A DNA stretch of 64,000 bases from Candidatus Magasanikiibacteriota bacterium (lineage in GTDB: Bacteria; Patescibacteriota; Patescibacteriia; Magasanikbacterales; GWA2-37-8), in NCBI GenBank assembly GCA_026396515.1, contig JAPLWQ010000003.1, forward strand, positions 163,569 through 227,568. Reading direction: 5' to 3'. A program made the translations under genes and the position numbers. The notes under the pieces are model-generated. The model searched no databases, was not told the origin of the DNA, and was given only the letters and a program-made list of their open reading frames with translations. Below, in pieces: positions 32,548 to 61,772 of this stretch; the first letter of the stretch is position 1; every line of letters begins with the position of its first letter.

Positions 32548-34476
32548 ATGCATAAATCCTACATTATTTCCGGAAAAAAATCAATCGTTTGGCTGGTGGC
32601 CGGCCTATTTTTGTTTTTAGCCGTTCCGGCCATGGCCAGCACCTCTTTAGATCCTGAATTTGCGCGGCAGGCGCCAGTTTTCAAACAAATTAATGCAGCC
32701 GCTGCCTGGAACTATACTACGGGCTCACCGGAAATTGTTGTGGCTGTTTTGGACACCGGAGTGGATATCGGGCACCCGGATTTAGCGAAGAATATTTGGA
32801 CCAATGAACATGAAATACCCGGCAACGGGATTGACGATGATGGTAATGGGTATATTGATGATGTTCACGGTTGGAATTTTATTGATAAAAATAACAATGT
32901 TGACGCCTCCACAGAGGCGACCTTTTTTGGCATAGAGACCATTTCGCACGGAACGGTTATCGCCGGTTTGATCGGCGCGATCGGTGATAATAACCAGTTC
33001 GGCGCCGGAGTGAATTGGCAGGTTAAAATTATGCCAATACGGGCTATCGATAACTACGGTTCCGGTTCGTATGAAGACTTGGCCAAGGCGGTGGATTATG
33101 CCGCGTCCAATGGAGCTGACATTATAAGTTTGAGTTTTGTCGGCAGCGCAGATGAAGCAATTCTCTATGAAGCATTGCGCCGCGCCTATACGAAAAATGT
33201 ATTAATTGTCGTTGCAGCCGGAAATGAAGGATTATCGGTAAACGGCAATATAGGCGAAAATTTTTTATACCCCATCTGCTACCCGGACCCGGAAAAAGAA
33301 AATTGGATTTTAGGCGTCACTGCCGTTGATCAATCGGATAAGCTGAGCGGGTTTGCCAATTATGGCGGTTGCGTGGATATTTCCGCACCGGGCGAAAATA
33401 TATTTAGCACCATCAAGCGCACTGCTGACAATAATAATCTCGGTTTCACCGGCCCATGGAAGGGTACGTCATTCGCTACTCCGCTGGTGGCCGGAGCAGC
33501 CGCCTTGGTAAAATCAGTGCAACCCGATTGGGGGCCAAAAAAGCTGATTTCAACTTTGCTGGCGTCTGTTGATAATATTGATAAGGCCAATCCCAATTTT
33601 CTTGGCCGATTTGGTTATGGCCGGTTAAATGTGGGGGCGGCGGTAAAAATCGCAATTAAAGAGAAATTATTAACCGGGCCATTCGCCAATATTTGCTATC
33701 CCGCAGCAGGCCAAATTTATTGTCATAGTTTGTACGATAATAAATCAGCGCCAATTGTTGATTTAAAAACCGGTCTCGTGACGATTGACAGCTCTGACCG
33801 TGAGCTGATTGCCGCACTGGTAAAAGAAAAAAATAATTTTACGATTAAAACTATTTTTAAAACTGGCGTTATTAATTCCGGTTGGGCTCTTGAACAAGGT
33901 ATAAATTTTAATCTCGTCAGAGTTGCGTCTGTTAATGGTGAAAAATTTGTTTACGTTGCGGGTTATGATGTGAAGGGCAAGCGGACTAAGATTATTTCTT
34001 TTTCTATAGAAGGGAAGCGTCAAATATCCTGGTGGGCTGCGGGACGGGTAGATACTTTCGATGTTAATGATAACGGCCGCATATTTATTGCGGGTATTAA
34101 AAATGGAAGATTAATTGTTGAGGATTACGATTTTCTCGGCAACTTTCAGAAGAAGTTTGATCTTGGCGGTGCGACGAGAGCCGATGATATATCGGTCGGC
34201 AATTTTACGGATACGGATATTGGCAGTGATGAACAAATAGCGGTAATTTCACGGCGCGGCTTAGACGCTTATCGGTTGATTGTTTATCCGGAAAGCGGCG
34301 GGTATTTGACCGAACGCCTGGCTGATACTAAGGAAAAATGGTCAATACTCACGGCTGATTACAATTACGATGGAGCGACGGATCTGTTGTTGTACAATAA
34401 TGGCGGCGGAATATTTAATATTGTCTCAGGCAAAGGAAATGTGCTAAAATCAGTGCAGTTGCCGCGCCTTAAATAG
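32548..34476 (+). CDS. Secreted S8 (subtilisin-like) serine peptidase with a C-terminal FG-GAP-like repeat domain
   Basis: Signal peptide. Asp/His/Ser triad contexts (VAVLDTGVD, HGTVIAG, GTSFATPLVAGAAAL). C-terminal repeats with DxNxDGxxD-like motifs. Confidence 0.85.
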   Translation: MHKSYIISGKKSIVWLVAGLFLFLAVPAMASTSLDPEFARQAPVFKQINAAAAWNYTTGSPEIVVAVLDTGVDIGHPDLAKNIWTNEHEIPGNGIDDDGNGYIDDVHGWNFIDKNNNVDASTEATFFGIETISHGTVIAGLIGAIGDNNQFGAGVNWQVKIMPIRAIDNYGSGSYEDLAKAVDYAASNGADIISLSFVGSADEAILYEALRRAYTKNVLIVVAAGNEGLSVNGNIGENFLYPICYPDPEKENWILGVTAVDQSDKLSGFANYGGCVDISAPGENIFSTIKRTADNNNLGFTGPWKGTSFATPLVAGAAALVKSVQPDWGPKKLISTLLASVDNIDKANPNFLGRFGYGRLNVGAAVKIAIKEKLLTGPFANICYPAAGQIYCHSLYDNKSAPIVDLKTGLVTIDSSDRELIAALVKEKNNFTIKTIFKTGVINSGWALEQGINFNLVRVASVNGEKFVYVAGYDVKGKRTKIISFSIEGKRQISWWAAGRVDTFDVNDNGRIFIAGIKNGRLIVEDYDFLGNFQKKFDLGGATRADDISVGNFTDTDIGSDEQIAVISRRGLDAYRLIVYPESGGYLTERLADTKEKWSILTADYNYDGATDLLLYNNGGGIFNIVSGKGNVLKSVQLPRLK

Positions 34477-34550
34477 GCGTGTTTTGTTCACTTGCCTAAG
34501 ACAGTAATTTTTGTTAAAATAGTACGGATTTATATAATAGTTTTGCATTT

Positions 34551-35573
34551 ATGGATACCCCAATTTTTGAGAAAAAAAATGTCATTGTCACGGGCGGTGC
34601 CGGTTTTATCGGTTCGCACTTATGCGAGCGGCTGTTAAAGGAGGCCAAAGTCATCTGTATCGATGATTTTTCCAATTCCGACCCCACGAATATCAACCAT
34701 CTTTTGCAGTATCCGGATTTTGAGTTTATTAATCTTGATGTGTCAAAGTCGCTCGACTTAGATCAGTATGAAGAATTGAATAAATTTAAAATTAAGTTTC
34801 AGGGCGTTCAGGAGATTTACCATTTGGCATGTCCTACCAGCCCGAAGGACTTTGAGAGTTTAAAAATGCAAACTCTGGCTGCGAATTCAACCGCCATGTT
34901 CAATACTTTGGATTTAGCGGTAAAGTATCGTGCTAAATACATATTTGCCTCAAGCTCGGTTATCTATGGTGATGCCACAGAGGAAAGAAACCGTTTTAAG
35001 GAATCCGATCAGGGTGTGGTTGATCATCTTTCACCGCGCGCGTGCTATGATGAAGGGAAGAGATTTGCCGAAGCCGCCGTGGAGACATATCACCAGGTGC
35101 ATGGAGTAGATGCGAAAATAGCGCGGATATTTACTACTTTTGGGCCTCGCATGCGTTTGTTTCAGGGCCTGCTTATTCCGGATTTTATCGTTGATGCGAT
35201 GGAAGGAAAAGATTTGGTTGTTTACGGAGATGAATCTTTTTCCACCTCTCTCTGCTACGTGGATGACCTGGTGACCGGGTTGACGAAGCTGATGTCATCG
35301 GATCCGGAAATTAAAGTGGCGAATTTCGGCGATGATAAAATCGTTCGAATTGTTGATGTGGCAAACATGATTATTAAGATGATGAATTCCACATCTAAAG
35401 TCACATTCGAAAAGAGTTTGCTGTTTTTAACAAAAAAAGGAGCTGCAGACTTAACCTTTGTTAAAGAAGCGCTCGGCTGGATGCCGCTCGTACGTCTGGA
35501 AGACGGTTTGGAAAAAACCATTGAATTTGTCGTGGCTAATAAAGAGGCGCTGCTTTTTAACCACAATCGTTAA
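34551..35573 (+). CDS. NAD-dependent nucleotide-sugar epimerase/dehydratase (SDR superfamily)
   Basis: TGGAGFIGSHL Rossmann motif and catalytic YxxxK region. UDP-GlcA decarboxylase or 4-epimerase-like. Confidence 0.8.
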   Translation: MDTPIFEKKNVIVTGGAGFIGSHLCERLLKEAKVICIDDFSNSDPTNINHLLQYPDFEFINLDVSKSLDLDQYEELNKFKIKFQGVQEIYHLACPTSPKDFESLKMQTLAANSTAMFNTLDLAVKYRAKYIFASSSVIYGDATEERNRFKESDQGVVDHLSPRACYDEGKRFAEAAVETYHQVHGVDAKIARIFTTFGPRMRLFQGLLIPDFIVDAMEGKDLVVYGDESFSTSLCYVDDLVTGLTKLMSSDPEIKVANFGDDKIVRIVDVANMIIKMMNSTSKVTFEKSLLFLTKKGAADLTFVKEALGWMPLVRLEDGLEKTIEFVVANKEALLFNHNR

Positions 35574-35576
35574 TTT

Positions 35577-36239
35577 ATGATCGTTGTTGTTGTTCCGGCT
35601 TATAATGAAGAAAAGAAAATTGGTCGCGTTGTACGCGGCCTTTTTGAACATGGCTATGAGAAGGTGGTTGTGGTTGACGATGGTTCGTCCGACGAGACCG
35701 GCAAACTCGCCGCTGAAGCCGGAGCTTTGGTGGTTTGCCATGCACTGAATCGCGGGCAAGGTGCCGCACTACGAACCGGCAACCAGTTTGCCCTGCGAAT
35801 CGGAGCCGAAATAATTGTGCACTTTGACGCTGATGGCCAGTTTAATCCCTCGGACATTGCCGGCGCCGTGCGTTTGATGCGTGAAAAATCTCTCGATGCC
35901 GTGCTTGGCTCAAGATTTTTGGACGAGCGGTCTAGAATTCCGTGGCTTAAAAAATATTTGATACTACCGTTTGCACGGATAGTTAACCGGCTGATAACCG
36001 GCATCTGGCTAACGGATGCGCACAATGGATTTCGCGTACTGAGTCGTGCTGCGGCGGAAAAACTCGTAATTCATCAGGATGGTATGGCGCATAATTCGGA
36101 AATTGTTTCTAAAATTGGAAAGAATAAAATGAAATTTCAGGAGATACCGGTTGAGGTGGTTTACCATGAATATGGCCAGGGGATACGCGGAGGCCTTAAA
36201 GTGCTGACTGATATATTTATTTCCAAATTATTTAAATAG
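35577..36239 (+). CDS. GT2 glycosyltransferase (polyprenol-phosphate sugar synthase-like, DPM1/GtrB type)
   Basis: VVVPAYNEE...VVVDDGSSDET...DAD motifs. About 220 aa. Confidence 0.85.
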   Translation: MIVVVVPAYNEEKKIGRVVRGLFEHGYEKVVVVDDGSSDETGKLAAEAGALVVCHALNRGQGAALRTGNQFALRIGAEIIVHFDADGQFNPSDIAGAVRLMREKSLDAVLGSRFLDERSRIPWLKKYLILPFARIVNRLITGIWLTDAHNGFRVLSRAAAEKLVIHQDGMAHNSEIVSKIGKNKMKFQEIPVEVVYHEYGQGIRGGLKVLTDIFISKLFK

Positions 36240-36244
36240 CAATT

Positions 36245-36583
36245 ATGACATTGATTCAAATAATTTTATTGGTGGTTTTTTTAGCGGGTGCGTTAAGTTC
36301 AGTTATCAGATTTAAACGCGGAGATATCAGGCCGTCCGAGCTTATTTTATGGATACTATTCTGGCTTTCCGCCGGTGCAGTAGTCGCCTGGCCGGACGCC
36401 ACATTCTATTTTGCAAAAATATTCGGTATCGGGCGCGGCGCTGACCTGATTGTCTATTTGGCTCTGGTGTTATTATTTTTTCTGGTTTTTCGTCTGATAA
36501 TATCCGTGGAAAAGCAAAGGCGCGAGATCACCATTCTCACGCGCCTGATGGCATTAAAAAATGTTGACGATAAAAAAGAATAA
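36245..36583 (+). CDS. DUF2304 small membrane protein (GT2 partner)
   Basis: Three TM helices. 112 aa. Immediately follows the DPM1-like GT2, as is typical for DUF2304. Confidence 0.6.
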   Translation: MTLIQIILLVVFLAGALSSVIRFKRGDIRPSELILWILFWLSAGAVVAWPDATFYFAKIFGIGRGADLIVYLALVLLFFLVFRLIISVEKQRREITILTRLMALKNVDDKKE

Positions 36584-36588
36584 TTATT

Positions 36589-37458
36589 ATGGCAGATAGA
36601 TTCAGCGCCTATTGGATTTCCCACACCTCGATTAGTGATTTTTTGTGCTGCCCGCGGGCGTATTATCTAAAAAATGTTTATCGCGATCCGAAAAATAATC
36701 ACAAAATCAAACTGATGAGTCCGCCTCTGGCGCTCGGTCAGTGCGTGCATGAAGTATTGGAATCGCTTTCCACGTTGCCGCGCAATCGCCGGCTTGATGT
36801 GTCCCTGGTAAAGAAATTTGATTCGTCATGGGAAAAAGTGTCAGGAAAAAGAGGAGGTTTTTTCAATGAAGAAATGGAATATAGATACAAAACGCGTGGC
36901 CAAAACATGATGCGCCGGGTGTTGCAGAACCCGGGGCCGATAGCCGAACTTTCAGTTAAGATCAACATGGACTTGCCGTATTATTGGCTTTCCGAAGAAG
37001 ACAATCTGATTTTATGCGGGAAAATTGACTGGTTGGAATATTTTCCGGAAACGGACAGCGTCCATATTATCGATTTTAAAACGGGCAAAAGCGAAGAAGA
37101 CCCGGCATCATTGCAGTTGCCGATATATCATTTATTGGTTCATAATTGTCAAAAAAGAAAGGCGTCAAAAGCCAGTTATTGGTATCTTGATTATAGCGAC
37201 GAGCCGACAGAAAAAATATTGCCTAATCTTGATGAATGTCATGAAAAGGTTTTGGCCGTGGGAAGAGATGTAAAATTAGCGCGCCAGATTGAAAGATATA
37301 AATGTCCGGCAGGCGAAAACGGCTGTTCGGCTTGCCGCCCGTTTGAGATGATATTTAACAGAGAGGCGGAGTTTGTGGCGACAGATCAGTATAGCGGTGA
37401 TGTATATGTTTTGCCGAATGCCGATGCCGATGAAGATCGCGATGGTACTATTTTATAA
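36589..37458 (+). CDS. Cas4-like PD-(D/E)XK nuclease with Fe-S Cys4 (one N-terminal Cys plus C-x6-C-x2-C at the C-terminus); solo, no CRISPR context
   Basis: Motif GKIDWLE (motif II Asp), IIDFKTGK (D-x-K), QCVHEVLE (QhxxY-like). Cys at LCCPRAYY and CPAGENGCSAC. Confidence 0.55.
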   Translation: MADRFSAYWISHTSISDFLCCPRAYYLKNVYRDPKNNHKIKLMSPPLALGQCVHEVLESLSTLPRNRRLDVSLVKKFDSSWEKVSGKRGGFFNEEMEYRYKTRGQNMMRRVLQNPGPIAELSVKINMDLPYYWLSEEDNLILCGKIDWLEYFPETDSVHIIDFKTGKSEEDPASLQLPIYHLLVHNCQKRKASKASYWYLDYSDEPTEKILPNLDECHEKVLAVGRDVKLARQIERYKCPAGENGCSACRPFEMIFNREAEFVATDQYSGDVYVLPNADADEDRDGTIL

Positions 37459-37465
37459 TAATATA

Positions 37466-38581
37466 ATGAAAATTGCGCATTTAGTATCAACATTTCCGCC
37501 GCATATAGGCGGTATGGGAGCGGTTTGCTACGAAGAGGTAAACCGTATGACAACCGGAAACGAAGTGTCTGTTTTTACGTTGAAATATCCGGGAGTGAAA
37601 TATAATGATAATGATTTTGGATTTTCTGTCCGCCGACTCAGGCCGATGTCGAAAGTCGGCGATGGAGGAATAATTTTCGGTTTGCCGAATTTTCTGCGAG
37701 GCTTTGATATTGTACATTTGCATTATCCGTTTTACGGCGCCTTGGGGTCGCTCGTTAAGGCCAAAAAGCTTCTTGGTTTCAAGCTGGTTGTCACCTACCA
37801 TATGGATCCGCAGGGCAGCGGCTTCAAAGGGGCTTTACAAAAGATTTATGATTCAATGTATTCCAGAAAGATATTCGCATTAGCTGATAAGATTATTGCC
37901 GTGGATGCCGATTATTTTAATAAATCAAAATTTGGGCGTTACATCGGAAAAGAAAAGATTATTTTTCTACCCAACGGAGTAGACACATACGAATTCAGCG
38001 GGCAGGAAGGGGATTGGTCTGCGCTGGGAAGGCCGGAGTTGATTGGTAAAAAAGTCATCCTATTTGTCGGTAATCTTTTACCCGTTAAGAATTTCGAATT
38101 CTTAATTAATTTATTGCCGAAATTACAGGACAACATAATACTTATGGCAGTGGGCGGCGGATATGATGAAGAAAGACTAAAAAAAATAACGGCCGGTACG
38201 CCGTATGAAAATCGTATTGTCTTTATTGGCTCCGGCGTCTCACGGAATGATTTGCCTAAATATTATTCTTACGCCGACCTGGTGGCCGTTCCGTCTCTTT
38301 CAGAATCATTTTCATTGGTGGTAGTCGAGGCGATGTCTTGCGGTGCAATAGTGCTCGCGAGTGATGTTGCGGGAATCCGCAGGCGTATTGTGAATGGCGC
38401 TAATGGATTTTTATCACCGTTAAATGACGCGTTGGCTTGGAAAGATGGTATTGAACGGATATTGTCATTAGGCAAAGAGGAAAAAAAAATTATTAAGGGA
38501 AGAGCTCGGGAAAGGGCGCTTCAATATGATTGGAACAATCATATTTTTTCTTTGAGTGAGGTGTACCGCGCTTTAATATGA
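37466..38581 (+). CDS. GT4 family glycosyltransferase (GT-B fold)
   Basis: N-terminal MKIAHLVSTFPPHIGGMG. C-terminal EsfxxxxxEAMACGxPVxASxxGG motif region. Start moved to the internal ATG. The upstream part of ORF 37373 overlaps the preceding gene. Confidence 0.8.
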   Translation: MKIAHLVSTFPPHIGGMGAVCYEEVNRMTTGNEVSVFTLKYPGVKYNDNDFGFSVRRLRPMSKVGDGGIIFGLPNFLRGFDIVHLHYPFYGALGSLVKAKKLLGFKLVVTYHMDPQGSGFKGALQKIYDSMYSRKIFALADKIIAVDADYFNKSKFGRYIGKEKIIFLPNGVDTYEFSGQEGDWSALGRPELIGKKVILFVGNLLPVKNFEFLINLLPKLQDNIILMAVGGGYDEERLKKITAGTPYENRIVFIGSGVSRNDLPKYYSYADLVAVPSLSESFSLVVVEAMSCGAIVLASDVAGIRRRIVNGANGFLSPLNDALAWKDGIERILSLGKEEKKIIKGRARERALQYDWNNHIFSLSEVYRALI

Positions 38582-39399
38582 CGTTTGATTATAACAAATC
38601 AATTTGGGGGAAGGGCACGGCAACATTGAAGTGGAGCGATCCAGCCAATGTGCGTTTGCGCCGGTGCATGAATGTATTTTCTGTTTTATCTGAAAAAGCA
38701 AAAATTTTAGAAGTCGGCTGTGGAGCGGGCGAATTTATTCGGGCGCTTAAATCGGCTAGGCCGTCTTGGAATTGTTTTGGCGCGGATATCAGCGAGACTG
38801 CGGTAAATAGGGCCATCATCTCAGCGGGCGGCGGCGTTGAATACGCGCTGTGCGGGGAATATAGCCTGCCTTATTCGGATGGTGAGTTTGATGGTGTCGC
38901 AATATTTGATGTTTTAGAACACGTTGGAGATCCGGTTGTTTTTCTACAAGAAATTAGGCGGGTGCTTAAACCAAGCGGGGTTCTTTATGCCTTTGTTCCT
39001 TGTGAGGGAGATATAACCTCGCTTTGGCATTTACTGGATAAACTGGGGCAAAAACATGAATTAACTAAAAGATTTGCCGGACATATACATTTTTTTTCTC
39101 GCAAACAGCTTTCTCAGGTCTTTGAAAATAGCGGTTTTACTGTTGAAAGTAAAAGTTACGCCGAGCATTTTATAGGCCAGATATTGGGTGTGGCGGTATT
39201 CAAAGCAATGGCCAGACATGCCAAGAATACCGGTGAAGAGCAGTTGAATAACGAACAGTTTTTTCTCGCTTCAAATTCAGGCTGGTATTCAATTTTCAAG
39301 AAATTAGTAAATTTTTTAATTTCTCTTGAATCAGCGTTGTTTTTTCTTATACCGTCGCCAAATGTGCATTTGGCAGTAAGAAATAAAAAGAAATTATGA
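38578..39399 (+). CDS. Class I SAM-dependent methyltransferase
   Basis: Motif I ILEVGCGAGEF. Motif post-I and motif III (LKPSGVLY). Confidence 0.8.
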   Translation: MTFDYNKSIWGKGTATLKWSDPANVRLRRCMNVFSVLSEKAKILEVGCGAGEFIRALKSARPSWNCFGADISETAVNRAIISAGGGVEYALCGEYSLPYSDGEFDGVAIFDVLEHVGDPVVFLQEIRRVLKPSGVLYAFVPCEGDITSLWHLLDKLGQKHELTKRFAGHIHFFSRKQLSQVFENSGFTVESKSYAEHFIGQILGVAVFKAMARHAKNTGEEQLNNEQFFLASNSGWYSIFKKLVNFLISLESALFFLIPSPNVHLAVRNKKKL

Positions 39400-40028
39400 A
39401 CGTAATACATATTATACCGTCTGTCTTTGACTATTTTGATGATATTAGGGATAGTGCCATGGCTCTTGCCGAGCGAGAGAGAGATTTTGGAATAAACGCC
39501 GAGGCCTACACGCTTCAATATGGCACTGTTTCGCGTAATGAACAGGCGGTAACGGCGTATAAAACTCCGACCATGAAATTCTCCGGACTGTTTAGCGGCT
39601 CCTACGTGATTTCAGAGCTTGATGCGGCCGATGTTGTCCATCTGCACGCTCCGTTTATGGGTTTGGCGGGTGATTTAATTAAATGGAAAAAAGAGCGGAA
39701 TATTCCGCTGATTGTCACTTTTTATAGAAATGTTAACATCCGTGATTTATTTTCATTGCTTTTGTCGTTATATAACCGGTACTATCTGCCGAAGATAATA
39801 AATTTGGCGGATTTAGTAATAGCAAGCACATCTGACACCTGTAAAAAATTATCAGTTTGCTCTAAGATTTCTGGGACGGGAAAACTTCGGATATTAAGTG
39901 AGTTAGTTAGCGGTTCAGAAAATGAAAATATCCACTTGACTTTGGATAAAAATACTATAAAATTAAGTACAGCAGATGTGGAGGCCCGCGCCTACATATC
40001 TGTTTATAATCATTTATTAAATATATAG
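39396..40028 (+). CDS. Hypothetical protein resembling an N-terminal GT4 half-domain (possible split or remnant glycosyltransferase)
   Basis: Glyco_trans_4-like beta-alpha pattern (IHIIPS...VVHLHAPF...PLIVTFY) without a C-terminal catalytic half. Confidence 0.3.
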   Translation: MNVIHIIPSVFDYFDDIRDSAMALAERERDFGINAEAYTLQYGTVSRNEQAVTAYKTPTMKFSGLFSGSYVISELDAADVVHLHAPFMGLAGDLIKWKKERNIPLIVTFYRNVNIRDLFSLLLSLYNRYYLPKIINLADLVIASTSDTCKKLSVCSKISGTGKLRILSELVSGSENENIHLTLDKNTIKLSTADVEARAYISVYNHLLNI

Positions 40029-40032
40029 GTCT

Positions 40033-40884
40033 ATGGAAAACGGAGAAAAAAAGAGGTTTTTTGAGCTTTTGGATTCGCGAAGCGCTATGGTAGTCGGCGG
40101 AATTGCCGGTTTGCTTATTCTTTGTACCATCGGGTTTATTGTGCTGGGTATCATGGCATTAACTAAGGGCGTTAATTGTCGGGCCGCGGCAGCGGGTGAA
40201 AATAAAGCTGTGGCTACCGCGCAGACAGCAGATACTGCCAACGCCCAGCCCGAAGCGACTCCTCCACCCAAAACAGATAAACCGAAAGTTGAGTTGTTTG
40301 TAATGTCGTATTGTCCCTATGGGCTTCAGATGGAGAAGGCATACTTGCCTGTGATGGAGCTTTTAAAGAAAAGAGCGGAGATGGATATTAAGTTTGTATC
40401 TTATGCCATGCACGGAAAGAAAGAGATTGATGAAAATACCAGACAGTATTGCATACAGAAAGATCAAGTGGCTAAACTTAATAAGTATCTGACATGCTTT
40501 ACGGGGAAAGATGATTATGCCGGATGTTTAAAGGAAGCGGGGGTAAATGAGAGCCAGGTTAATACTTGTATGGCAAAAGCGGATACGCAGTTTGGCATCA
40601 CGGCCAAATTTAATGATCAAGCCAGCTGGCTGAGCGGACAATTCCCAATGTATCAGGTTCATGCCGCTGATAACGAGAAGTATGGCGTACAGGGTTCTCC
40701 GACTTTGGTCATCAATGGCGTACAATCAGAAGTCGATCGTAGTCCCGAGGCGGTGAAGCAGGCAATTTGCGCCAGCTTTACTAAAGCGCCGGCTGAGTGT
40801 GATACAGCCCTCAGCACGCAAAGCGCCGCTCCGAGTTTTGGCGTTGGTACCGCCGGCGCAAGTACTGATGCGAGTTGTGGTTAA
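40033..40884 (+). CDS. Membrane-anchored thioredoxin-fold (DsbA-like) protein
   Basis: N-terminal TM helix. Ala/Thr/Pro-rich linker. Thioredoxin-like domain with CPYG (single-Cys variant of CxxC) and a cis-Pro region (GSPTLVING). Confidence 0.5.
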   Translation: MENGEKKRFFELLDSRSAMVVGGIAGLLILCTIGFIVLGIMALTKGVNCRAAAAGENKAVATAQTADTANAQPEATPPPKTDKPKVELFVMSYCPYGLQMEKAYLPVMELLKKRAEMDIKFVSYAMHGKKEIDENTRQYCIQKDQVAKLNKYLTCFTGKDDYAGCLKEAGVNESQVNTCMAKADTQFGITAKFNDQASWLSGQFPMYQVHAADNEKYGVQGSPTLVINGVQSEVDRSPEAVKQAICASFTKAPAECDTALSTQSAAPSFGVGTAGASTDASCG

Positions 40885-40908
40885 TTTTCATTAATTAACT
40901 TTTTTCAT

Positions 40909-41220
40909 ATGGGTAGATTTAAAAAAGGATTAGTGCTGGGTGGTATTGTTGGCGCCGGACTAATGTGGCTGAATGCTACGGTAAAAGGCAAAGAATATCG
41001 AGCTAAATTAATTGCTCACCTTGAACCGCTGTATAATGAATTAAAGGAAAGCATCATGAAGTTGGAAGGTCCGACCCGTGAGATGTGGGACGCGTTGGTG
41101 GAGAGAGCGGTAGAGGAATACAGCGCGAAAAAGGAATTGGCGGTCGATGTTAAAAATAATCTGATACGAGAATTACAGAAGAGGTGGTGCAAGTTGGAAA
41201 AAGAGATTAGAAACGGATAA
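40909..41220 (+). CDS. YtxH-like small protein
   Basis: N-terminal GxxxGxxxG-type helix (GLVLGGIVGAGLMW) then a coiled coil. Confidence 0.4.
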   Translation: MGRFKKGLVLGGIVGAGLMWLNATVKGKEYRAKLIAHLEPLYNELKESIMKLEGPTREMWDALVERAVEEYSAKKELAVDVKNNLIRELQKRWCKLEKEIRNG

Positions 41221-44985: not shown

Positions 44986-46605
44986 CTATTCTTTTGTTTC
45001 AATTAGTTCGGTGGTTGTAATATTCCGCAATTTTAGCCAGCGTCTTTCGAACGCCTCCTTAAGCGATACAAATTCCGGTACTTTTAATAGCCAGCAGATA
45101 AAGCCATAAACGGCGAATCCTATCAACCCCGCGACCAGACCCTGGCCGAGTACGCCGAAAAAATAATTCATATCAAAGATTTTTGCCAACGGATATTTCA
45201 AAAATTGAATCACAACAGCCATGGCAATGGCGGCAATGGAAATACGGTAAAGCGATGCAATTAATTTTTCTCCCTCAATCCCGCCGGTAGCCTTTCGCAG
45301 ATATATTACGAGTAGGGTCATATTAAGTACGGCGCCGACTGAAGAGGCAAGAGCCAAGCCGGCGACTCCGAGCGGGCGCATTAAAATAAGAGCCGCGATG
45401 ATTGCTATTAGCTCTGTAATTACACCGATCACAAAAGGTGTTTTTGTGTCGGAAAGGGAATAGAAAGAGCGCGCCAGAAGAGGAATTAATGATTGAGCGA
45501 AAAGTCCGAATGCAAAAAAGGCGAGGGCATCGGCTGTGGCTGTAGTGGCGGACCAATCGAAAGCGCCGGATCCAAGCACCACGCGAACAATCTGCGCGCG
45601 CAATAAAAGTATTATGACGGACATGGGAATTACTAGGAAGAGAATCTGCCGGGCGGTGCTGCTTAGGTATTTTAAGAAGTCGGCGGAATTATTCCTTGCT
45701 GCCGCAGCTGACAGTAAAGGAAAAACCGCCAAGGCAAATGGGATGCCGATAATGCCCGTAGGAACCGCTTGCAGGTTGTTGGCGTAATTGTAAACAGCTA
45801 CACTGCCTATCGGTAAAAGTGATGCCAAAATAGTAACTACAAAAACATTGAGTTCGGTGATTGCTAAGCCGAGAGTGCGTGGTATCATCAGTTTTGCCAC
45901 CAAGCGGGTTTCCGCGTCTTTAAGGTCGAATTGCCAGTGCCAGCGCCAACCGGCTCCGCGAGCCCCGATCATTTGAAGCGAACAGTGAAGTGCCGCGCCG
46001 AGAACGACTCCCCAGGCAAGACCAATTGGACCGAATAATTTAACCAGAAATACTGCACCGACTATGATACCCAGGTTATAAAAAATTGGAGCGATTGAAT
46101 AGAAAACAAAACGCCCCAGCGATTGAAGAACACCTCCAAGCGTCATGGATAAACCGAAAAAGAGCGGTGATATGAACATTATTCTGGTGAGTGATACAGT
46201 CAGCTCGCGGCTTGCTTCAGAAAAGCCCGGTGCGACAACCGGTATGAGCCAAGGGGCAAATACCATGCCTACAATGCTGAGAACGGCGATGACCAATCCG
46301 CCAATGTTAAAAATGTTGTTGGCCAGGCGCCAGGCAGGACTTTTTTCTTCACCGGAGTAAAATAATTTAGTAAATGTCGGTATAAAACCGGCGGTTAGAG
46401 CGCCTACGATCAGTAAAGTGTAGATAAGGTCCGGTATTTTAAACGCGGCGTAATATGCGTCCATAATTTCCCCGGCTCCGAAATAGTGGGCAAGAACACG
46501 GTCCCGTATCAAACCGATGATTTTACTTAACAAAGTAGCCGAGGCGATAATAATAGCCGCGCCGGTAACTGTTTTTGACTGATTGTTTAATCTATCCAAT
46601 ATCAT
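44986..46605 (-). CDS. murJ: Lipid II flippase MurJ/MviN
   Basis: 14-TM MOP superfamily with a conserved N-terminal region (LSKIxGxxRDxxLAxxFGAG). Confidence 0.85.
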   Translation of the reverse strand: MILDRLNNQSKTVTGAAIIIASATLLSKIIGLIRDRVLAHYFGAGEIMDAYYAAFKIPDLIYTLLIVGALTAGFIPTFTKLFYSGEEKSPAWRLANNIFNIGGLVIAVLSIVGMVFAPWLIPVVAPGFSEASRELTVSLTRIMFISPLFFGLSMTLGGVLQSLGRFVFYSIAPIFYNLGIIVGAVFLVKLFGPIGLAWGVVLGAALHCSLQMIGARGAGWRWHWQFDLKDAETRLVAKLMIPRTLGLAITELNVFVVTILASLLPIGSVAVYNYANNLQAVPTGIIGIPFALAVFPLLSAAAARNNSADFLKYLSSTARQILFLVIPMSVIILLLRAQIVRVVLGSGAFDWSATTATADALAFFAFGLFAQSLIPLLARSFYSLSDTKTPFVIGVITELIAIIAALILMRPLGVAGLALASSVGAVLNMTLLVIYLRKATGGIEGEKLIASLYRISIAAIAMAVVIQFLKYPLAKIFDMNYFFGVLGQGLVAGLIGFAVYGFICWLLKVPEFVSLKEAFERRWLKLRNITTTELIETKE

Positions 46606-54233: not shown

Positions 54234-55343
54234 ATGTTGGAACGAGTGGCCGAGAAAAAGACTGATCGTCTTTTTTTGCTTTATGTGGCTATACTGATTT
54301 TATTCGGTCTGGCTGCTTTAGCCTCTGCCAGCGCACCGTATGGCTATAGCCGTTTTGGCGATATCTACTATTTTGTAAAAAGGCAAATTTTTTATGGGTT
54401 ATTGCCGGGATTATTAATATTTTTTATTTTTATCCGTTTTAAGGCTAGGTTTTGGCAACGTGTCAGTTGGGTTGCATATTTTGCCTGTCTAGCGGCTCTG
54501 ATAATAGTATTTATTCCTGGAGTGGGTGCGGATTTTAATAAATATGCAAAGAGCTGGATTGATATCGGTTTTTTTCATTTTCAACCGGCGGAATTTGTAA
54601 AGCTCGGTCTGATTATGGTTTTGGCTCAAATGTTAAGCGACCCCAGGCGCGACCTGAGAGATTTCAAACACGGTCTCTTGCCTGTGCTTGGCGTTATAGC
54701 GCCGGTGATGTTTTTAGTTCTATTTCAACCGGATATTGGAACGCTGGCGGTGTTGGGTGGCATCTCTTACAGCATGTTATTTTTAGCAAAGACACCAAAG
54801 ATTTACTTGGCAATAATCGGCCTGCTTGGCGTTGCCGGTTTTGCATTAATAGCCTTAGTTGCACCCTACCGCATGGATCGTTTAACCATTTTTTTACATC
54901 CCGAACTTGATCCTCAGGGCGTCGGCTATCACGTAAACCAGGCGTATCTGGCGGTCGGCTCCGGTGGTTTTTGGGGGCTTGGGCTTGGCCATTCACGGCA
55001 AAAGCACGCCTATCTTCCGGAAGTTCAGGCCGACTCCATATACGCTGTTATTGCCGAGGAGCTCGGTTTCTTATTTTCTGCCGGTCTTATGGTTTTCATC
55101 TTACTTATTGCGTGGCGGGGTTTCAATATCGCCAAAGAGGCGTCAGATGAATACGGCTATTTACTTGTTTGCGGAATTATGGTTTGGTTCTTTTGGCAAT
55201 CGTTTATAAATATCGGAGCAATGGTCGGGTTATTGCCTTTGACAGGTGTCACCTTACCCTTTGTCAGCCACGGCGGGTCGTCTCTTATGATTAGCCTGGC
55301 GGCGGTGGGTATTGTTGCCAGTGTCAGCCGTGGATCGCGATAA
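54234..55343 (+). CDS. ftsW: SEDS family peptidoglycan polymerase (FtsW/RodA)
   Basis: About 10 TM helices. Conserved C-terminal PLTGVTLPFVSxGGSS motif. Confidence 0.85.
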   Translation: MLERVAEKKTDRLFLLYVAILILFGLAALASASAPYGYSRFGDIYYFVKRQIFYGLLPGLLIFFIFIRFKARFWQRVSWVAYFACLAALIIVFIPGVGADFNKYAKSWIDIGFFHFQPAEFVKLGLIMVLAQMLSDPRRDLRDFKHGLLPVLGVIAPVMFLVLFQPDIGTLAVLGGISYSMLFLAKTPKIYLAIIGLLGVAGFALIALVAPYRMDRLTIFLHPELDPQGVGYHVNQAYLAVGSGGFWGLGLGHSRQKHAYLPEVQADSIYAVIAEELGFLFSAGLMVFILLIAWRGFNIAKEASDEYGYLLVCGIMVWFFWQSFINIGAMVGLLPLTGVTLPFVSHGGSSLMISLAAVGIVASVSRGSR

Positions 55344-55360
55344 TTATTTTCTGTTTAAAG

Positions 55361-55386
55361 AGAACCCCGAAATGGGGTTTTTTTGA
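55361..55386 (+). terminator. Rho-independent terminator
   Basis: aacccc-gaaat-ggggtt then tttttt. Confidence 0.8.
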
Positions 55387-55499
55387 TTTGCACCATTTTG
55401 ACAAATCAGGCCATTATGATAATATAGTTTTGCTTAAGTAAGCAAAAAATAGCTAATATTCGGCTTAATTTTTTTGGTTATAAAAGCAAAGAGACACTT

Positions 55500-56342
55500 A
55501 TGGATTTATCTATAATCACCGTTACCCACAATGATAAAGATCAAATGGCGGGCCAGCTGGAATCCGTAGAGTCTGCGGCCCGCGATATTAGCGTTGAGCA
55601 ATGGGTTGTTGATAATGGATCAGAGGATGGCACCGCGGAGTTGGTCAGCAAAAATTTTCCGGAAGTGAATATTATAAAAAATTCCGATAACACCGGTTTC
55701 GGCCGTGCCAATAATCAGGCGGCGAAAAAATCCGCCGGCGATTTTTTCCTTTTTTTAAACCCTGATATGCGCTTAGAAGAGCGGGGGTTAGATAAGATTG
55801 TTGCTTGGATGCGGGCGCATCCTGAAGTCGGTATCGCCAGTTGTAAGCTAATTTATGAAAATGGAAAGTTTAATGAAAATGCTAAGCCGCGGCGCTTTCC
55901 CCGTTTGTCAGACCAGATAGCGATTCTTTTGAAGTTACCGCACATATTTCCAAACATACTTGGCGGATACTTGTATAAAGATTTCGATGAAAACAAGGAA
56001 CAGGAAGTTGATACCGTGCGTGGATCATTTATGCTTATGCGTCGTTCACTTTATGAAAAACTCGGTTGGGCTTTCGATCCGCGATACTTTATCTGGTTTG
56101 AAGATGTTGACACTTGCCGTGAGTGCAGGAAATTAGGAATGAAAGTCGTATACACGCCGATTATTTCTTGCGTCGACTATGTCGGCCAGAGTTTTAAAAA
56201 AATGCCGGTAATATGGAAACAGAAAAATTTTACAAAAAGCATGCTGCAGTATTTTCAGAAATGGGAGCCATGGTATAAATGGATCTGGGTTGCGGCGCTT
56301 AGGCCGGTAGCAATCGCATTCTCCGCCATAAATAAGAAATAA
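55500..56342 (+). CDS. GT2 family glycosyltransferase
   Basis: SIITVTHN...NxGFGxANN...DxD (NPD) motifs. Confidence 0.8.
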   Translation: MDLSIITVTHNDKDQMAGQLESVESAARDISVEQWVVDNGSEDGTAELVSKNFPEVNIIKNSDNTGFGRANNQAAKKSAGDFFLFLNPDMRLEERGLDKIVAWMRAHPEVGIASCKLIYENGKFNENAKPRRFPRLSDQIAILLKLPHIFPNILGGYLYKDFDENKEQEVDTVRGSFMLMRRSLYEKLGWAFDPRYFIWFEDVDTCRECRKLGMKVVYTPIISCVDYVGQSFKKMPVIWKQKNFTKSMLQYFQKWEPWYKWIWVAALRPVAIAFSAINKK

Positions 56343-56349
56343 TTTTTTT

Positions 56350-57441
56350 ATGCATAAATTAAGCGTAAATTTGGTTGTCTGCAACGGCGCAAGGTATCTT
56401 CCGTTTATGATTGAGTCGTTAAAGCATCAATTGTTCAAGGATTTTGAAATGATCGTTGTCGACAATGCTTCAACTGACGGCACGGTCGATTTGATAAAAA
56501 AGAGCATGGTTGATTCAGGAATTGAATATCGTTTGATTCAGAATATTGAAAACCTTGGTTTCTCCCATGGTCATAATCAAGCTTATAAGGAAACGCAGAC
56601 GCCGTATTTTGTTCTGATTAACGCTGATACATATTTGATGCCTGACGTGTTGGGGAAAGCGGTATCCTTTTTAGACACCCACACTAATACCGCCGCGGTT
56701 GCTCCACGATTGATGCGTTGGGACTTTGAAATTACGCGTACAGGAATTGGTAGCGGATCCGACTATTCGGCTGTGGCGCGTCAGGGTTTCACTTCGCAGA
56801 TAGACGCTATCGGTATACGGCTGTTTCGCAATCGTCGCGCCGTTGAATGGCTTACCAAACAGGAATGGGCCAAGGATAGCTCTTCGATTGATGTGCAAAA
56901 AATATTTGATAAAAATGTCCTGGAAGTTTTCGGCGTATCCGGCGCTTTCGCGGTTTACCGGAAGAGTGTTATTGATAACGTTCGCCTTCCGGGCGAGAAC
57001 ATGTTTGACCCTACATATCATTCATATAAGGAAGACTTGGATTTGGCGTACCGCTTGCGTAATGCCGGTTACGTTTCCTACGTAATCCTTGACAGCGTTG
57101 TTTATCACGACCGAACAGGAGCCGGACCGATGAAAATGAGCGACTGGGCCGCACTGAAAAACAAAACACGTCAGACATTTTTTGTCCGTTATCATTCATA
57201 TAAAAATCATTTGCGTACTCTATATAAAAATGAATATTGGCAGAATTTCCTGATTGATCTTCCTCTTATTTTCTGGTACGAACTGAAAAAGTTTTTTTAC
57301 ATTCTGTTTATCGACCCGAAAGTAATTTTCATGGGATGGTCGGATATAATTAAGAACCGCAAGTATACCTGTGAGGCGCGTAAGGCGGTCATAAAATCAA
57401 GGCGCATGTATTGGAAAGGGCTGCGAAGATGGTGGTTATAA
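56350..57441 (+). CDS. GT2 family glycosyltransferase
   Basis: LVVCNGARYL...VDNASTDGT...NxGFSHGHN...DAD. Confidence 0.8.
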   Translation: MHKLSVNLVVCNGARYLPFMIESLKHQLFKDFEMIVVDNASTDGTVDLIKKSMVDSGIEYRLIQNIENLGFSHGHNQAYKETQTPYFVLINADTYLMPDVLGKAVSFLDTHTNTAAVAPRLMRWDFEITRTGIGSGSDYSAVARQGFTSQIDAIGIRLFRNRRAVEWLTKQEWAKDSSSIDVQKIFDKNVLEVFGVSGAFAVYRKSVIDNVRLPGENMFDPTYHSYKEDLDLAYRLRNAGYVSYVILDSVVYHDRTGAGPMKMSDWAALKNKTRQTFFVRYHSYKNHLRTLYKNEYWQNFLIDLPLIFWYELKKFFYILFIDPKVIFMGWSDIIKNRKYTCEARKAVIKSRRMYWKGLRRWWL

Positions 57442-57444
57442 AAT

Positions 57445-58275
57445 ATGTTTGACGTTTGTGTAACAATAGTAAACACAAAGGAGCGTGCGGAGATAGAGAA
57501 ATCTCTTGATTCGTTATTCGCCGATTCGATGGAGTCCGGGCTAAATTTTGGCATTGCCGTAATTGATAATTCGTCCGGTGAAGCCGTGGAGGAATTGGAA
57601 AAAAAATACACAAATTTACGAGTTCTCAGGCAGGAGAGAAACATGGGTTTTGGCTATTCGCACAATCGTGCGTTTGAGGCCGTAACGGCGAAGTACTATT
57701 TTATACTCAATCCGGACACCGAATTTCCGGCCGGTCAGAATTTTCTCCGTAGATTAGTAAAATTTATGGATGAAAATCCTAAGATTGGAATGGCTGGTCC
57801 AAAGATATTTTATCCGGACGGTTCTTTACAATATTCCTGCTATCGTTTTCCCTCTTTTTTTCAGCCCGTTTTTTCCAGAACAAGCGCCGGGCAGACCGAA
57901 ACCGGAAAAAAAGCCACCGGCAGGTACTTAATGAAAGATTTTGATCATAATCTTTCGATACCTGTTGACTGGGTTATGGGTTCCGCCATGATTTTTCGCC
58001 GTGCGGCTTATGAGCAGATCGGCGGTTTTGATGAAAGGTATTTTATGTATGCGGAGGATAGCGATTTGTGCCGCCGTCTTTGGGAAGCGGGTTGGGCGGT
58101 TTATTATGTTCACGACATTCATCTGCGCCATACGCACGGGCGGGCGTCGGCAAAAGTGCCCGGTGTTTTTCGGGCACTAATAAAAAATCCATTTACCCGC
58201 GTTCATATTTACAGCTGGTTGAAATACTTTTTTAAATGGCGCAATAATCGCCATTATTATCCGCACGATATATGA
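57445..58275 (+). CDS. GT2 family glycosyltransferase
   Basis: DNSSGE...NxGFGYSHN...NPD...EDSD motif. Confidence 0.8.
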   Translation: MFDVCVTIVNTKERAEIEKSLDSLFADSMESGLNFGIAVIDNSSGEAVEELEKKYTNLRVLRQERNMGFGYSHNRAFEAVTAKYYFILNPDTEFPAGQNFLRRLVKFMDENPKIGMAGPKIFYPDGSLQYSCYRFPSFFQPVFSRTSAGQTETGKKATGRYLMKDFDHNLSIPVDWVMGSAMIFRRAAYEQIGGFDERYFMYAEDSDLCRRLWEAGWAVYYVHDIHLRHTHGRASAKVPGVFRALIKNPFTRVHIYSWLKYFFKWRNNRHYYPHDI

Positions 58276-59366
58276 GTTTACCGAAAACGGCAATTATATA
58301 TCTGTGCTGGGCCGATGAACCGAAAAAGTATTTGGGCGCGGCGCTTGATGCTATTGCAGGGCAAACATATCCGAAAGAGGGGACGATGGTAGTAGTTGTA
58401 TATAATGGTCCCCGTTCAGGTGAAGAATCTCAGCTGGACTATATTAGAAATGAGATCAATGATAAACGGCATAGATTGCCCGATACCGTTGTCCTTGAAC
58501 CGGGAGGTAATGTCGGCTTTTCAGCAGGGAATAATTTTGGCGCCAGATATGCGGTGGAACATGGCGCCGATTATATTTTTTTGCATAATGCCGATGGCTT
58601 TTTGAAAAATACTGCGATAGCTGAGTTGGTTAGGGTCATGGAAAGTGATAAAAATATAGGGGAGTGCCAGCCTTTAATACTTCTATACCCCGAAAGGCAT
58701 CTGATTAATTCAGCAGGAAATGAGTTCCATTATTTGGGTATAGGATTTTGCGCGAGCTACCGCGATGCAGTTAAGGATGTGTATCCGGTTTTTTCCGAAA
58801 TAGGATATGTCAGCGGAGCGGCCGCATTTATGCGCGCTGACCTTCTAAAGCAATTTGGATACTGGAGCGACAGGTTTTTTCTTTATCATGAGGACACCGA
58901 ATATTCGCAGCGTTTAAAAGTTCGTGGTTATAAAATCGGTATGGCTGGCCAGGCGGTGTTTTATCACCAATATGAGTTTTCTAATAAGCCGAATAAGTTT
59001 TTTTGGATTGAGCGGAATCGGCACGCGCTTAAATTGTTGTTCTATAAATGGCCGACATTGATTCTGCTTCTGCCTTTGGAAATAGTGTATAATGTCGGTT
59101 TACTGTTTTTGTCAGCAGTAAACGGGTGGTTTCCTGAATTGATTAAGGTTTACGGATATTGGTTAAAACCAAAAAACTGGAGAGGATGGCTTGCCGACAG
59201 GAAAATATTGCAGAAGCAGAGAATCGTCAGCGACCGCCAAATGATTTTCCGCGCGGCTGTCGGAGTGGGGACAGGGGATTTGCGTCTTCCGGCCATAATA
59301 CGAGTAAGCGTTAATTTCATCTTTACAATTTATTGGTATTTACTTAAAATACTTATCTGGTGGTAA
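58272..59366 (+). CDS. GT2 family glycosyltransferase with C-terminal TM helices
   Basis: NVGFSAGNN...HNAD...HEDTE motif. ATGA overlap with the previous GT2. Confidence 0.7.
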   Translation: MSLPKTAIIYLCWADEPKKYLGAALDAIAGQTYPKEGTMVVVVYNGPRSGEESQLDYIRNEINDKRHRLPDTVVLEPGGNVGFSAGNNFGARYAVEHGADYIFLHNADGFLKNTAIAELVRVMESDKNIGECQPLILLYPERHLINSAGNEFHYLGIGFCASYRDAVKDVYPVFSEIGYVSGAAAFMRADLLKQFGYWSDRFFLYHEDTEYSQRLKVRGYKIGMAGQAVFYHQYEFSNKPNKFFWIERNRHALKLLFYKWPTLILLLPLEIVYNVGLLFLSAVNGWFPELIKVYGYWLKPKNWRGWLADRKILQKQRIVSDRQMIFRAAVGVGTGDLRLPAIIRVSVNFIFTIYWYLLKILIWW

Positions 59367-59382
59367 TAAGATTCGTTACATT

Positions 59383-60474
59383 ATGAAGATATTAGTCTGT
59401 GGCGGCGCCGGGTTTATCGGCTCAAATTTCATCCATCATATTCTGGAAAAGCATCCGCATTATGAGGTGGTGAATTATGACAAGCTAACCTACGCCGGGA
59501 ACCTGGACAATTTAAAAGATATTGAGAATAAATTGGAATATTCGACCCGGTACACCTTTATTAAAGGTGATATTTGCGATTACAAACTTTTGGCCGAGGT
59601 TGTTGAAAAGTATAAAATTGATCACGTAATAAATTTTGCCGCGGAAACTCATGTTGATAGGTCAATTTTTGGAGATTGCTCGGACTTTGTTATGACCAAC
59701 ACCTACGGCGTTCTAATGTTGTGTAATTTAGTGCGTTATTTTGGTCTGCAAAAATTTGTTAATGTTTCAACCGATGAAGTCTATGGAACCCTTGGCCTTA
59801 ATGATGAGCGCCGTTTTACCGAGCTAACTCCGATCGAACCGAATATGCCATATGCGGCGGCAAAAGCCGGTGGCGATATGATTTGTCGATCGTATTTTGT
59901 AACCCACAAAATTCCGGTAGTGGTGACGCACTGCTCCAACAATTACGGTCCGTATCAACATCCGGAGAAACTGATACCGTCGTCAATTTTCAGATTATTA
60001 AAAAATAAGCCGATATTGCTTCACGGATCCGGCGTTAATGTGAGAGACTGGATATATGTGCGCGATCATTGTGCCGCGCTCGACCTGATGCTCCACGAGG
60101 GCAAGCCGGGCGAGATATATAATGTCGGGGTTGACAATGAACGCAATAATTTGGAGATTTCGAAAATGATTTTGTCGCTAATGAACAAATCCGAGAATAT
60201 GATTGAGTTTGTTGAAGACCGGCCGGGAAATGACTTGCGCTATGCAATTGATGCCGCTAAATTGGAGGCACTGGGATGGAAACCTATTTATGATCGCGGC
60301 CAATTTGAAATCGGAATGTCGGAAACGATTAACTGGTATTTGACTCACCGCGATTGGGTTGAGGCACTATGGTCAAAGCACGAGGACGCTTACAAAATCA
60401 ACCACGCCCCGACCAGAGAGAAGCGGGAAAAATCACATGATGAAAAAATCGAGTCGGGTGAAAAAATTATTTAA
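59383..60474 (+). CDS. rfbB: dTDP-glucose 4,6-dehydratase
   Basis: MKILVCGGAGFIGSNF. Catalytic region ...DEVYG... and PYAAAKAGGD (YxxxK). 363 aa. Confidence 0.9.
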   Translation: MKILVCGGAGFIGSNFIHHILEKHPHYEVVNYDKLTYAGNLDNLKDIENKLEYSTRYTFIKGDICDYKLLAEVVEKYKIDHVINFAAETHVDRSIFGDCSDFVMTNTYGVLMLCNLVRYFGLQKFVNVSTDEVYGTLGLNDERRFTELTPIEPNMPYAAAKAGGDMICRSYFVTHKIPVVVTHCSNNYGPYQHPEKLIPSSIFRLLKNKPILLHGSGVNVRDWIYVRDHCAALDLMLHEGKPGEIYNVGVDNERNNLEISKMILSLMNKSENMIEFVEDRPGNDLRYAIDAAKLEALGWKPIYDRGQFEIGMSETINWYLTHRDWVEALWSKHEDAYKINHAPTREKREKSHDEKIESGEKII

Positions 60475-60483
60475 TATCATAAT

Positions 60484-60888: not shown

Positions 60889-60890
60889 TT

Positions 60891-61757: not shown

Positions 61758-61772
61758 CATTACTTAAATATT

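Follow-up and report, generated by a model that had tools for sequence, protein, structure and literature searches.

The nucleases AdnA and AddB are reported to bind an Fe4S4 cluster and to cleave the 5′ strand where DNA ends have been unwound, and ACE1, a stand-alone enzyme that also binds Fe4S4, acts as an endonuclease on single-stranded DNA (ssDNA), with a buried active site that is reached through a narrow channel; AdnA and AddB likewise cut ssDNA by way of a narrow channel, and none of the three acts on duplex DNA without a helicase (PMC12094033). ACE1 has been reported only in cyanobacteria, where it is co-encoded with a long-A Argonaute (PMC12094033). The solo-Cas4 proteins, encoded outside CRISPR-cas loci, are over-represented in Candidate Phyla Radiation (CPR) bacteria and in DPANN archaea, are inherited mainly vertically and were described as being of unknown function (Hudaiberdiev et al. 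2017, PMC5704561). Here we describe a related gene in a 64,000-nucleotide stretch of a Candidatus Magasanikiibacteriota genome (GenBank assembly GCA_026396515.1, contig JAPLWQ010000003.1, positions 163,569 to 227,568), hereafter the window. The gene lies within a run of genes for surface-glycan biosynthesis. A sequence-only reading of the window had described its product as a solo Cas4-like iron–sulfur (Fe-S) nuclease in an unexpected place, and had offered anti-phage defence, repair, phage origin or moonlighting as explanations. We conclude that this is probably a Patescibacteria housekeeping gene for a vertically inherited, stand-alone Fe-S nuclease of ssDNA or DNA ends, with its operon site being a lineage-specific accident.

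Family and fold of the nuclease

From its sequence, the gene product is clearly a member of the RecB/AddB/Cas4 superfamily of nucleases. The match to PF12705 (PDDEXK_1) scores 83.9 bits against a gathering cut-off of 22 (E = 2.3e-23) and extends over residues 10–249, corresponding to model positions 2–240 of 247, which places the protein in a nuclease family and not in a non-nuclease one. Its scores against the two curated Cas4 models fall below their cut-offs (19.6 against 22.7 bits for PF01930, 32.4 against 65 bits for TIGR00372). Therefore the protein is not a Cas4 in the strict sense, and its earlier description as Cas4-like is correct at the level of the superfamily but not at that of the family. 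A 100% identical protein at NCBI carries the name 'PD-(D/E)XK nuclease family protein [Candidatus Magasanikbacteria bacterium]'.

An AlphaFold2 model of the nuclease (mean predicted local distance difference test score, pLDDT, 76.7; predicted template modelling score, pTM, 0.75) was compared with the Protein Data Bank (PDB) using Foldseek. The best match is ACE1 (9iab/9iac; E ~6e-7, TM 0.57–0.65), followed by the nuclease domains of AdnA/AdnB (E 1.5e-5), by Dna2 (E 5e-5) and by AddB (E 4e-4). Canonical Cas4 structures (4ic1, 8d3l) are marginal matches (E 0.04–0.09). When PDB sequences were searched directly, the lone protein and a narrow family profile (A1) each gave a single weak match (E = 0.15 and E = 0.21), so we used a broader profile, A2, built from 32 diverse relatives that are 25–62% identical. 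A2 matches ACE1 at 1.9e-11 and AdnA at 5e-7. In the AdnA profile alignment, which covers residues 9–248, the N-terminal Cys, GxxD, DxKTGK, QLxxY and the CxxC pair are all in register, bearing out the proposed correspondence of Cys and motif positions with AddB-type enzymes. The PF12705 match, the Foldseek matches and the AdnA alignment agree in placing the protein among the PD-(D/E)XK nucleases of the Cas4/AddB/AdnA/Dna2 superfamily, as had been proposed.

ACE1 is the closest described enzyme both by fold and by profile. Like ACE1, the CPR protein stands alone at ~270–290 amino acids with no helicase domain, and the D-DxK triad and a set of one N-terminal and three C-terminal Cys are common to both. 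However, the two are 12–16% identical in structure alignment; the CPR family carries a conserved C-terminal tail of its own and has no recurrent Argonaute-sized neighbour. AdnA/AdnB, AddB and Dna2 (PDB 6PPU/6PPR/9NP6, 4CEJ_B and 5EAN) have the same fold, but there it forms a domain of helicase-nucleases of at least ~1000 amino acids, whereas the CPR protein is free and consists of the nuclease domain only. CRISPR Cas4 (PF01930/TIGR00372; 4IC1, 4R5Q, 8D3L) shares the PD-(D/E)XK core and a four-Cys Fe-S module with the CPR protein and shows weak profile similarity to it (E ~7e-4; PADLOC Cas4 ~2e-8), but the CPR protein is ~80 residues longer and is not accompanied by cas1/cas2 or a CRISPR array in the window.

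The category that fits the protein is that of the solo-Cas4/pfam12705 'RecB family exonucleases' (COG2887-type), which are known from small-genome bacteria, archaea and phages. Its fold recurs in homologs from phages that carry the names RecB family exonuclease, COG2887 or Cas4 family exonuclease. The protein belongs to the solo pfam12705/Cas4-superfamily nucleases of CPR bacteria, a known kind that is biochemically uncharacterised. Hudaiberdiev et al. 2017 cover pfam12705 only briefly, and the CPR subfamily is unusually uniform. A search of the literature on CPR RecB family exonucleases and on RecBCD/AddAB and DNA repair in Patescibacteria returned nothing specific on this subfamily.

Conserved residues, cysteine layout and C-terminal tail

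The 289-amino-acid reading frame and the GKID, hhhDFK and QxxxE/Y nuclease motifs first recognised by eye of a model reader all translate at the expected coordinates (Table 1), as do one N-terminal and three C-terminal Cys, which are conserved. C21, D147, D162, K164, Q176, Y180 and C249 are invariant among the 32 relatives in A2, and C239, C246, H54 and G144 are conserved in at least 90% of them. C21, D147, D162, K164, Q176 and Y180 are invariant in A1 too. Given conservation across relatives as divergent as these, the motif residues are under selection and did not arise by chance. GxIDW, DFKT and QxxxY are present in all 81 genome-encoded homologs.

Table 1 Features of the nuclease gene and its host transcription unit, in window coordinates
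Feature	Position	Strand	Remarks
Gene for stand-alone, predicted Fe-S PD-(D/E)XK nuclease (PF12705 family), 289 amino acids	36589..37458	+	Open reading frame with ATG start; PF12705 match
DFLCCPRAYYLKN, N-terminal iron-staple motif	36637..36675	+	C21 (36649-36651), putative first cluster ligand; aligns with the N-terminal Cys of AdnA
VHEVLE, motif I (H54, E58)	36745..36762	+	H54 invariant in A1, ≥90% in A2; E58 invariant in A1
GKID, motif II, D147 as first catalytic aspartate	37018..37029	+	Aligns with GrlD (AdnA) and the D of the D-DxK triad (ACE1)
IIDFKT, motif III, D162-x-K164 as (D/E)xK catalytic pair	37066..37083	+	Aligns with vvDlKTGK (AdnA) and hivDfKTGK (ACE1)
QLPIY, motif IV, RecB-family QhxxY (Q176, Y180)	37114..37128	+	Aligns with QLamY of AdnA
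CPAGENGCSAC, C-terminal Cys triad (C239-x6-C246-x2-C249)	37303..37335	+	Putative Fe-S binding together with C21
PNADADEDRDGTIL, acidic C-terminal tail, predicted to be disordered (residues 276-289)	37414..37455	+	Conserved hydrophobic dipeptide end; possible docking motif
Host transcription unit (putative)	34511..41220	+	Epimerase, GT2, DUF2304, nuclease, GT4, methyltransferase, GT4 N-terminal half, GILT-like, YtxH (Pfam)

The canonical C-terminal spacing of Cas4 and AddB is C-x2-C-x5-C. This spacing is found in none of the 81 homologs, where the layout is instead C-x4-6-C-x2-C, with x6 before the CxxC pair in 55, x5 in 18 and x4 in 6. In the A2 profile alignment, the counterparts of C246-x2-C249 are GCanC in AdnA and CryC in ACE1, and the C239 column is without Cys in both of these enzymes. 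We infer that the four Cys are ligands of an Fe-S cluster. The fourth ligand seems to have been shifted upstream of the CxxC pair, where AdnA/AdnB, AddB and Dna2 have it downstream, and the family may thus have a re-wired iron staple.

The C-terminal tail is a second distinguishing feature. Residues 279–289 have pLDDT <50 in the AlphaFold2 model and are scored as disordered, yet L289 is invariant in A1. Two hydrophobic residues form the C-terminus in 81 of the 81 homologs, compared with 10.4% of 568 neighbouring open reading frames (ORFs). The usual end is [GS]-x-[ILV]-[LIF] after an acidic linker, and the mean net charge of the tail is -1.75. The tail is probably a short docking motif for a partner protein, a possible role suggested by this pattern of conservation.

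The tip of the tails of Bacillus-type ssDNA-binding proteins (SSB) is DLPF, and several distant relatives (P0151, P0160, P0186 and P0219) end in the same four residues. With a Bacillus subtilis SsbA sequence as the query, one SSB gene was found in ~1.3 Mb of CPR DNA, in Magasanikbacteria GW2011_GWA2_56_11 (locus L028). Its product has the canonical tail ...EDIPF, and the nuclease of the same genome ends in ...ASVVL. As the two tails differ, the close family is not a literal mimic of the SSB tip, and the resemblance serves as no more than a lead. The SSB gene (at 11673-11987 and farther along that locus) lies ~0.8 kb downstream of the nuclease gene, which may be coincidence.

Distribution and genomic context

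At E ≤ 0.001, 6722 clusters formed at 90% identity match the nuclease, and the best 120 of them are all 63–84% identical to it, with lengths of ~287–290 amino acids. A library clustered at 50% identity contains 78 matching clusters at E ≤ 1e-30. The full-length relatives listed from it are all ≤378 amino acids long and are therefore not helicase fusions. On these comparisons the family is tight, uniform and very conserved, with 58–84% identity across several candidate phyla. The solo form is not universal in the phylum, because in one genetically tractable saccharibacterium PF12705 is found only in a UvrD-helicase fusion, SEML1_0364 (PMC10633639 supplement).

A collection of species-representative genomes contains at least 548 stretches that encode a relative. 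The analysis of context was made on the best 80 of these loci (L001–L080; 58–83% identical nucleases), which include metagenome-assembled genomes (MAGs) with Magasanik-, Woese-, Shapiro-, Collier-, Pace- and Paceibacterota/Parcubacteria labels. We searched the 80 loci with the 13 proteins that neighbour the nuclease in the window. The glycan neighbourhood was recovered in only five (L001, L002, L003, L017 and L024), in which everything from CTP synthase to LepA is shared, and the order epimerase–GT2–DUF2304 ... GT4–methyltransferase is kept in these five alone. The remaining 75 loci have a nuclease orthologue (58–69% identical) and none of the window's neighbourhood. Conservation at the same position in related glycan loci, which the sequence-only reading had named as a check, is thus confined to five of the 80. 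Even there the junction of DUF2304 and nuclease is not fixed, since L024 has an extra 305-amino-acid ORF with no Pfam match between the two genes (9068-9985).

Many of the MAGs with copies that are 58–69% identical bear the title 'uncultured Gammaproteobacteria bacterium' or else 'uncultured Pseudomonadales bacterium', and are TPA_asm co-assemblies. Loci L004, L006, L007, L009-L012, L014, L017-L019, L021 and many more are titled in this way, and the names look like placeholders or mislabels; in L017 the synteny with the Magasanikbacteria window is complete, extending over 14 genes.

In an unbiased clustering of the flanking ORFs, four from either side of the nuclease, the neighbour families occur in at most 17 of 81 loci. 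Those that recur are a pseudouridine synthase, FtsE/FtsX-like proteins, a C39-type peptidase, an RNase H-fold exonuclease-like protein, and RpoB-like and MetK-like proteins. No cas-like, helicase-sized or Argonaute-sized neighbour family is recurrent in the 80 loci, the only large recurrent one being RpoB. Within the five syntenic loci (in the order L001, L002, L003, L017 and L024) the nuclease is 83, 72, 70, 66 and 65% identical to that of the window, RecJ 85, 70, 68, 68 and 67%, and the GT4 protein 78, 47, 56, 54 and 55%. The nuclease has diverged at about the slow rate of RecJ and less rapidly than the GT4 protein beside it.

Within the window, Pfam confirms the neighbours named in the sequence-only reading, namely DUF2304, glycosyltransferases of the GT4 and GT2 types, an epimerase, a methyltransferase (S-adenosylmethionine-dependent) and a thioredoxin-like protein (GILT/thioredoxin-like). 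A Bac_transf sugar transferase and a subtilase are encoded upstream, and RecJ and LepA downstream on the other strand. The DUF2304 gene ends at 36583, 5 nt before the nuclease gene, and the true ATG of the GT4 gene is at 37466, after a gap of 7 nt. The tight co-directional packing that had been pointed out is therefore real, but it is not special to this gene. The window is 95.8% coding, 45 of the 63 adjacent pairs among its 64 ORFs are co-directional, and the median co-directional gap is 5 nt, with gaps ≤10 nt in 28 of the 45. Since only five of 80 loci keep the glycan neighbourhood and gaps of ~5 nt are the norm, the context that had seemed unexpected is uninformative.

Of the promoter-like matches in the region scanned, the best (TTGTTA-16-TATAAT, 34511-34538) is just upstream of the epimerase gene and is preceded by a terminator-like hairpin (34463-34481). 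The scan for promoters and terminators found nothing notable flanking the nuclease gene and no strong internal promoter or terminator. With a promoter-like site ahead of the epimerase gene and none of note at the nuclease, co-transcription of the nuclease with the envelope genes is likely on sequence grounds, and we read it as hitch-hiking.

In the same unit, a 210-amino-acid ORF (39396-40028) corresponds to the N-terminal (Glyco_transf_4) half of a GT4 protein only. It is a separate short gene in five of the five syntenic relatives, at 37–70% identity, and represents either a GT4 whose splitting or truncation has been conserved or an N-domain protein that stands alone.

Proposed function and alternative explanations

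We propose that the protein acts as a stand-alone, metal-dependent PD-(D/E)XK DNA nuclease, built from the module also found in the nuclease domains of AdnA, AddB and Dna2 and in the stand-alone ACE1, enzymes that lead ssDNA along a narrow channel to an active site buried within. An Fe-S staple formed by C21 with C239, C246 and C249 would join the N- and C-terminal parts and pin the fold. D147, D162 and K164 would bind metal and cut DNA, aided by H54/E58 and Q176/Y180. Because there is no helicase domain, the most likely substrates are ssDNA, 5′ tails or flaps that other proteins have exposed. The disordered acidic tail with its hydrophobic end would probably dock the nuclease onto a partner. 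The role would be a housekeeping one in the DNA repair, recombination or DNA recycling of Patescibacteria, and of the options raised from sequence alone, that of a repair factor fits the data best. In this very compact genome the gene is possibly co-transcribed with the glycan and cell-envelope operon and would not take part in glycan synthesis.

Several points weigh against a housekeeping nuclease placed in the operon by accident. The gene has been kept in the operon across a fairly deep clade, in which LepA is down to 80% identity and GT4 to 47%, and co-expression with the envelope genes, likely within the syntenic clade, could have a regulatory meaning. Fe-S binding is a prediction, and the Cys layout differs from that of the solved homologs. 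Substrate, polarity and pathway are extrapolated from homologs that are 12–16% identical in structure alignments. A contribution to defence is also conceivable, because some solo Cas4-family proteins have been reported to lower plasmid content (PMC12094033).

A more far-reaching version of the housekeeping proposal, which we consider unlikely, is that of a Patescibacteria-specific and possibly essential ssDNA nuclease with a re-wired staple, whose tail recruits it to a hub of replication, repair or DNA uptake. It would be one half of a 'split' resection machine resembling AdnAB/AddAB, or would degrade imported DNA for nucleotide salvage in organisms unable to make nucleotides.

Among the alternatives, a stand-alone anti-plasmid or anti-phage nuclease that degrades invading DNA in the manner of a solo-Cas4-type defence is quite unlikely. 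It is in keeping with weak and generic matches to the PADLOC models for Cas4, for an Argonaute-associated Cas4-like nuclease and for DruK (E 1e-8 to 1e-3), and with the 'uncharacterized defense or repair functions' suggested for the solo-Cas4 of small-genome microbes (Hudaiberdiev et al. 2017, PMC5704561). However, solo-cas4 genes evolve mainly by vertical descent and experience purifying selection of an ordinary kind (PMC5704561). Across several candidate phyla the family shows strong conservation and a uniform length, and its neighbours are housekeeping genes, not defence genes. Genes of defence are typically patchy in distribution and evolve fast. PADLOC sees no complete defence system in the window, which disfavours both the anti-phage reading suggested earlier and a defence island.

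It is very unlikely that the nuclease is a functional part of the surface-glycan pathway, as a moonlighting enzyme or a regulator. In favour of such a role, the gene is co-directional with its neighbours across short gaps, the scan found no strong promoter or terminator inside the unit, and five related species have preserved the arrangement. The synteny largely refutes it, as the orthologues in 75 of 80 loci have no glycan genes nearby, and the moonlighting once suggested is disfavoured on this account. Also against it are the invariance of all the nuclease catalytic residues, spacing that is the genome-wide norm and the unrelated ORF at the DUF2304–nuclease junction of L024.

A prophage remnant, that is, a Cas4/RecB-like exonuclease of phage or mobile-element origin inserted into the operon, is extremely unlikely. 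The protein does match PHROG 69 'exonuclease' (E = 3.3e-12), and many phage RecB-family and Cas4-family exonucleases share its fold (BFVD, TM ~0.6). However, these structural matches are only 10–20% identical, and the best tblastn match from 50,697 phage genomes reaches 23.6% identity across 67% of the protein, which speaks against the phage-derived Cas4 that had been considered. G+C over the nuclease gene is 0.424, in line with its flanks, the Pfam families listed for ORFs of the window include no integrase or phage genes, and the species-representative collection contains orthologues in at least 548 genome stretches.

The chance is negligible that the gene encodes a genuine Cas4 of CRISPR adaptation, with its CRISPR-cas locus in another part of the genome: some close homologs are named 'CRISPR/Cas system-associated exonuclease Cas4 (RecB family)', but the protein falls short of both Cas4 cut-offs, matches canonical Cas4 structures only marginally and has no recurrent cas-sized neighbour family in the 80 loci, the 64-kb window holds no CRISPR-like repeat array and, in a PADLOC scan of its 64 ORFs, no cas family besides the weak Cas4 matches of the nuclease itself (as the sequence-only reading had stated), and within the pfam12705 branch there is no major group associated with CRISPR (PMC5704561). 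No Argonaute-like family was found in the window scans. On the evidence given above, we rejected the readings as a CRISPR Cas4, as a phage remnant, as a component of the glycan pathway and as part of a defence island.

Other features of the window

The window contains several other features. A sensor histidine kinase of 1198 amino acids (7485-11081), which has a GAF domain and some five PAS domains, is a large piece of signalling machinery for a CPR genome of reduced size. A 445-amino-acid protein (13300-14637) has two SLOG domains of the LOG/'lysine decarboxylase' type and a weak DprA-like match, and is probably the source of a PADLOC match to PsyrA (E = 1.5e-11). One window ORF, which is not the nuclease studied here, gave a PADLOC match to SduA (Shedu, DUF4263 nuclease; E = 2.7e-7); the match was not among the ten unannotated window ORFs that were re-scanned.

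The region appears rich in cell-envelope genes, with MurJ at 44986-46605 and with FtsW- and MraW-type families also present in the window. In the Pfam summary of all window ORFs there are four GT2 proteins, three of epimerase type and two of RmlD type. A run of similar-sized genes on the + strand (~54234-62390) may be a second cluster for sugar nucleotides and glycosyltransferases.

Implications

For annotation, a nuclease gene inside a CPR polysaccharide operon is not evidence of a defence island or of moonlighting. CPR genomes pack unrelated genes 5 nt apart, and adjacency alone therefore says little about function. What stays of interest in the family is the repositioned fourth Cys, the conserved tail and the unusual degree of conservation. 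As a small nuclease that is very conserved across several candidate phyla, it is a reasonable target for biochemistry. If it turns out to be an end-resection or DNA-recycling nuclease of these reduced bacteria, it would fill a gap in the DNA metabolism of Patescibacteria.

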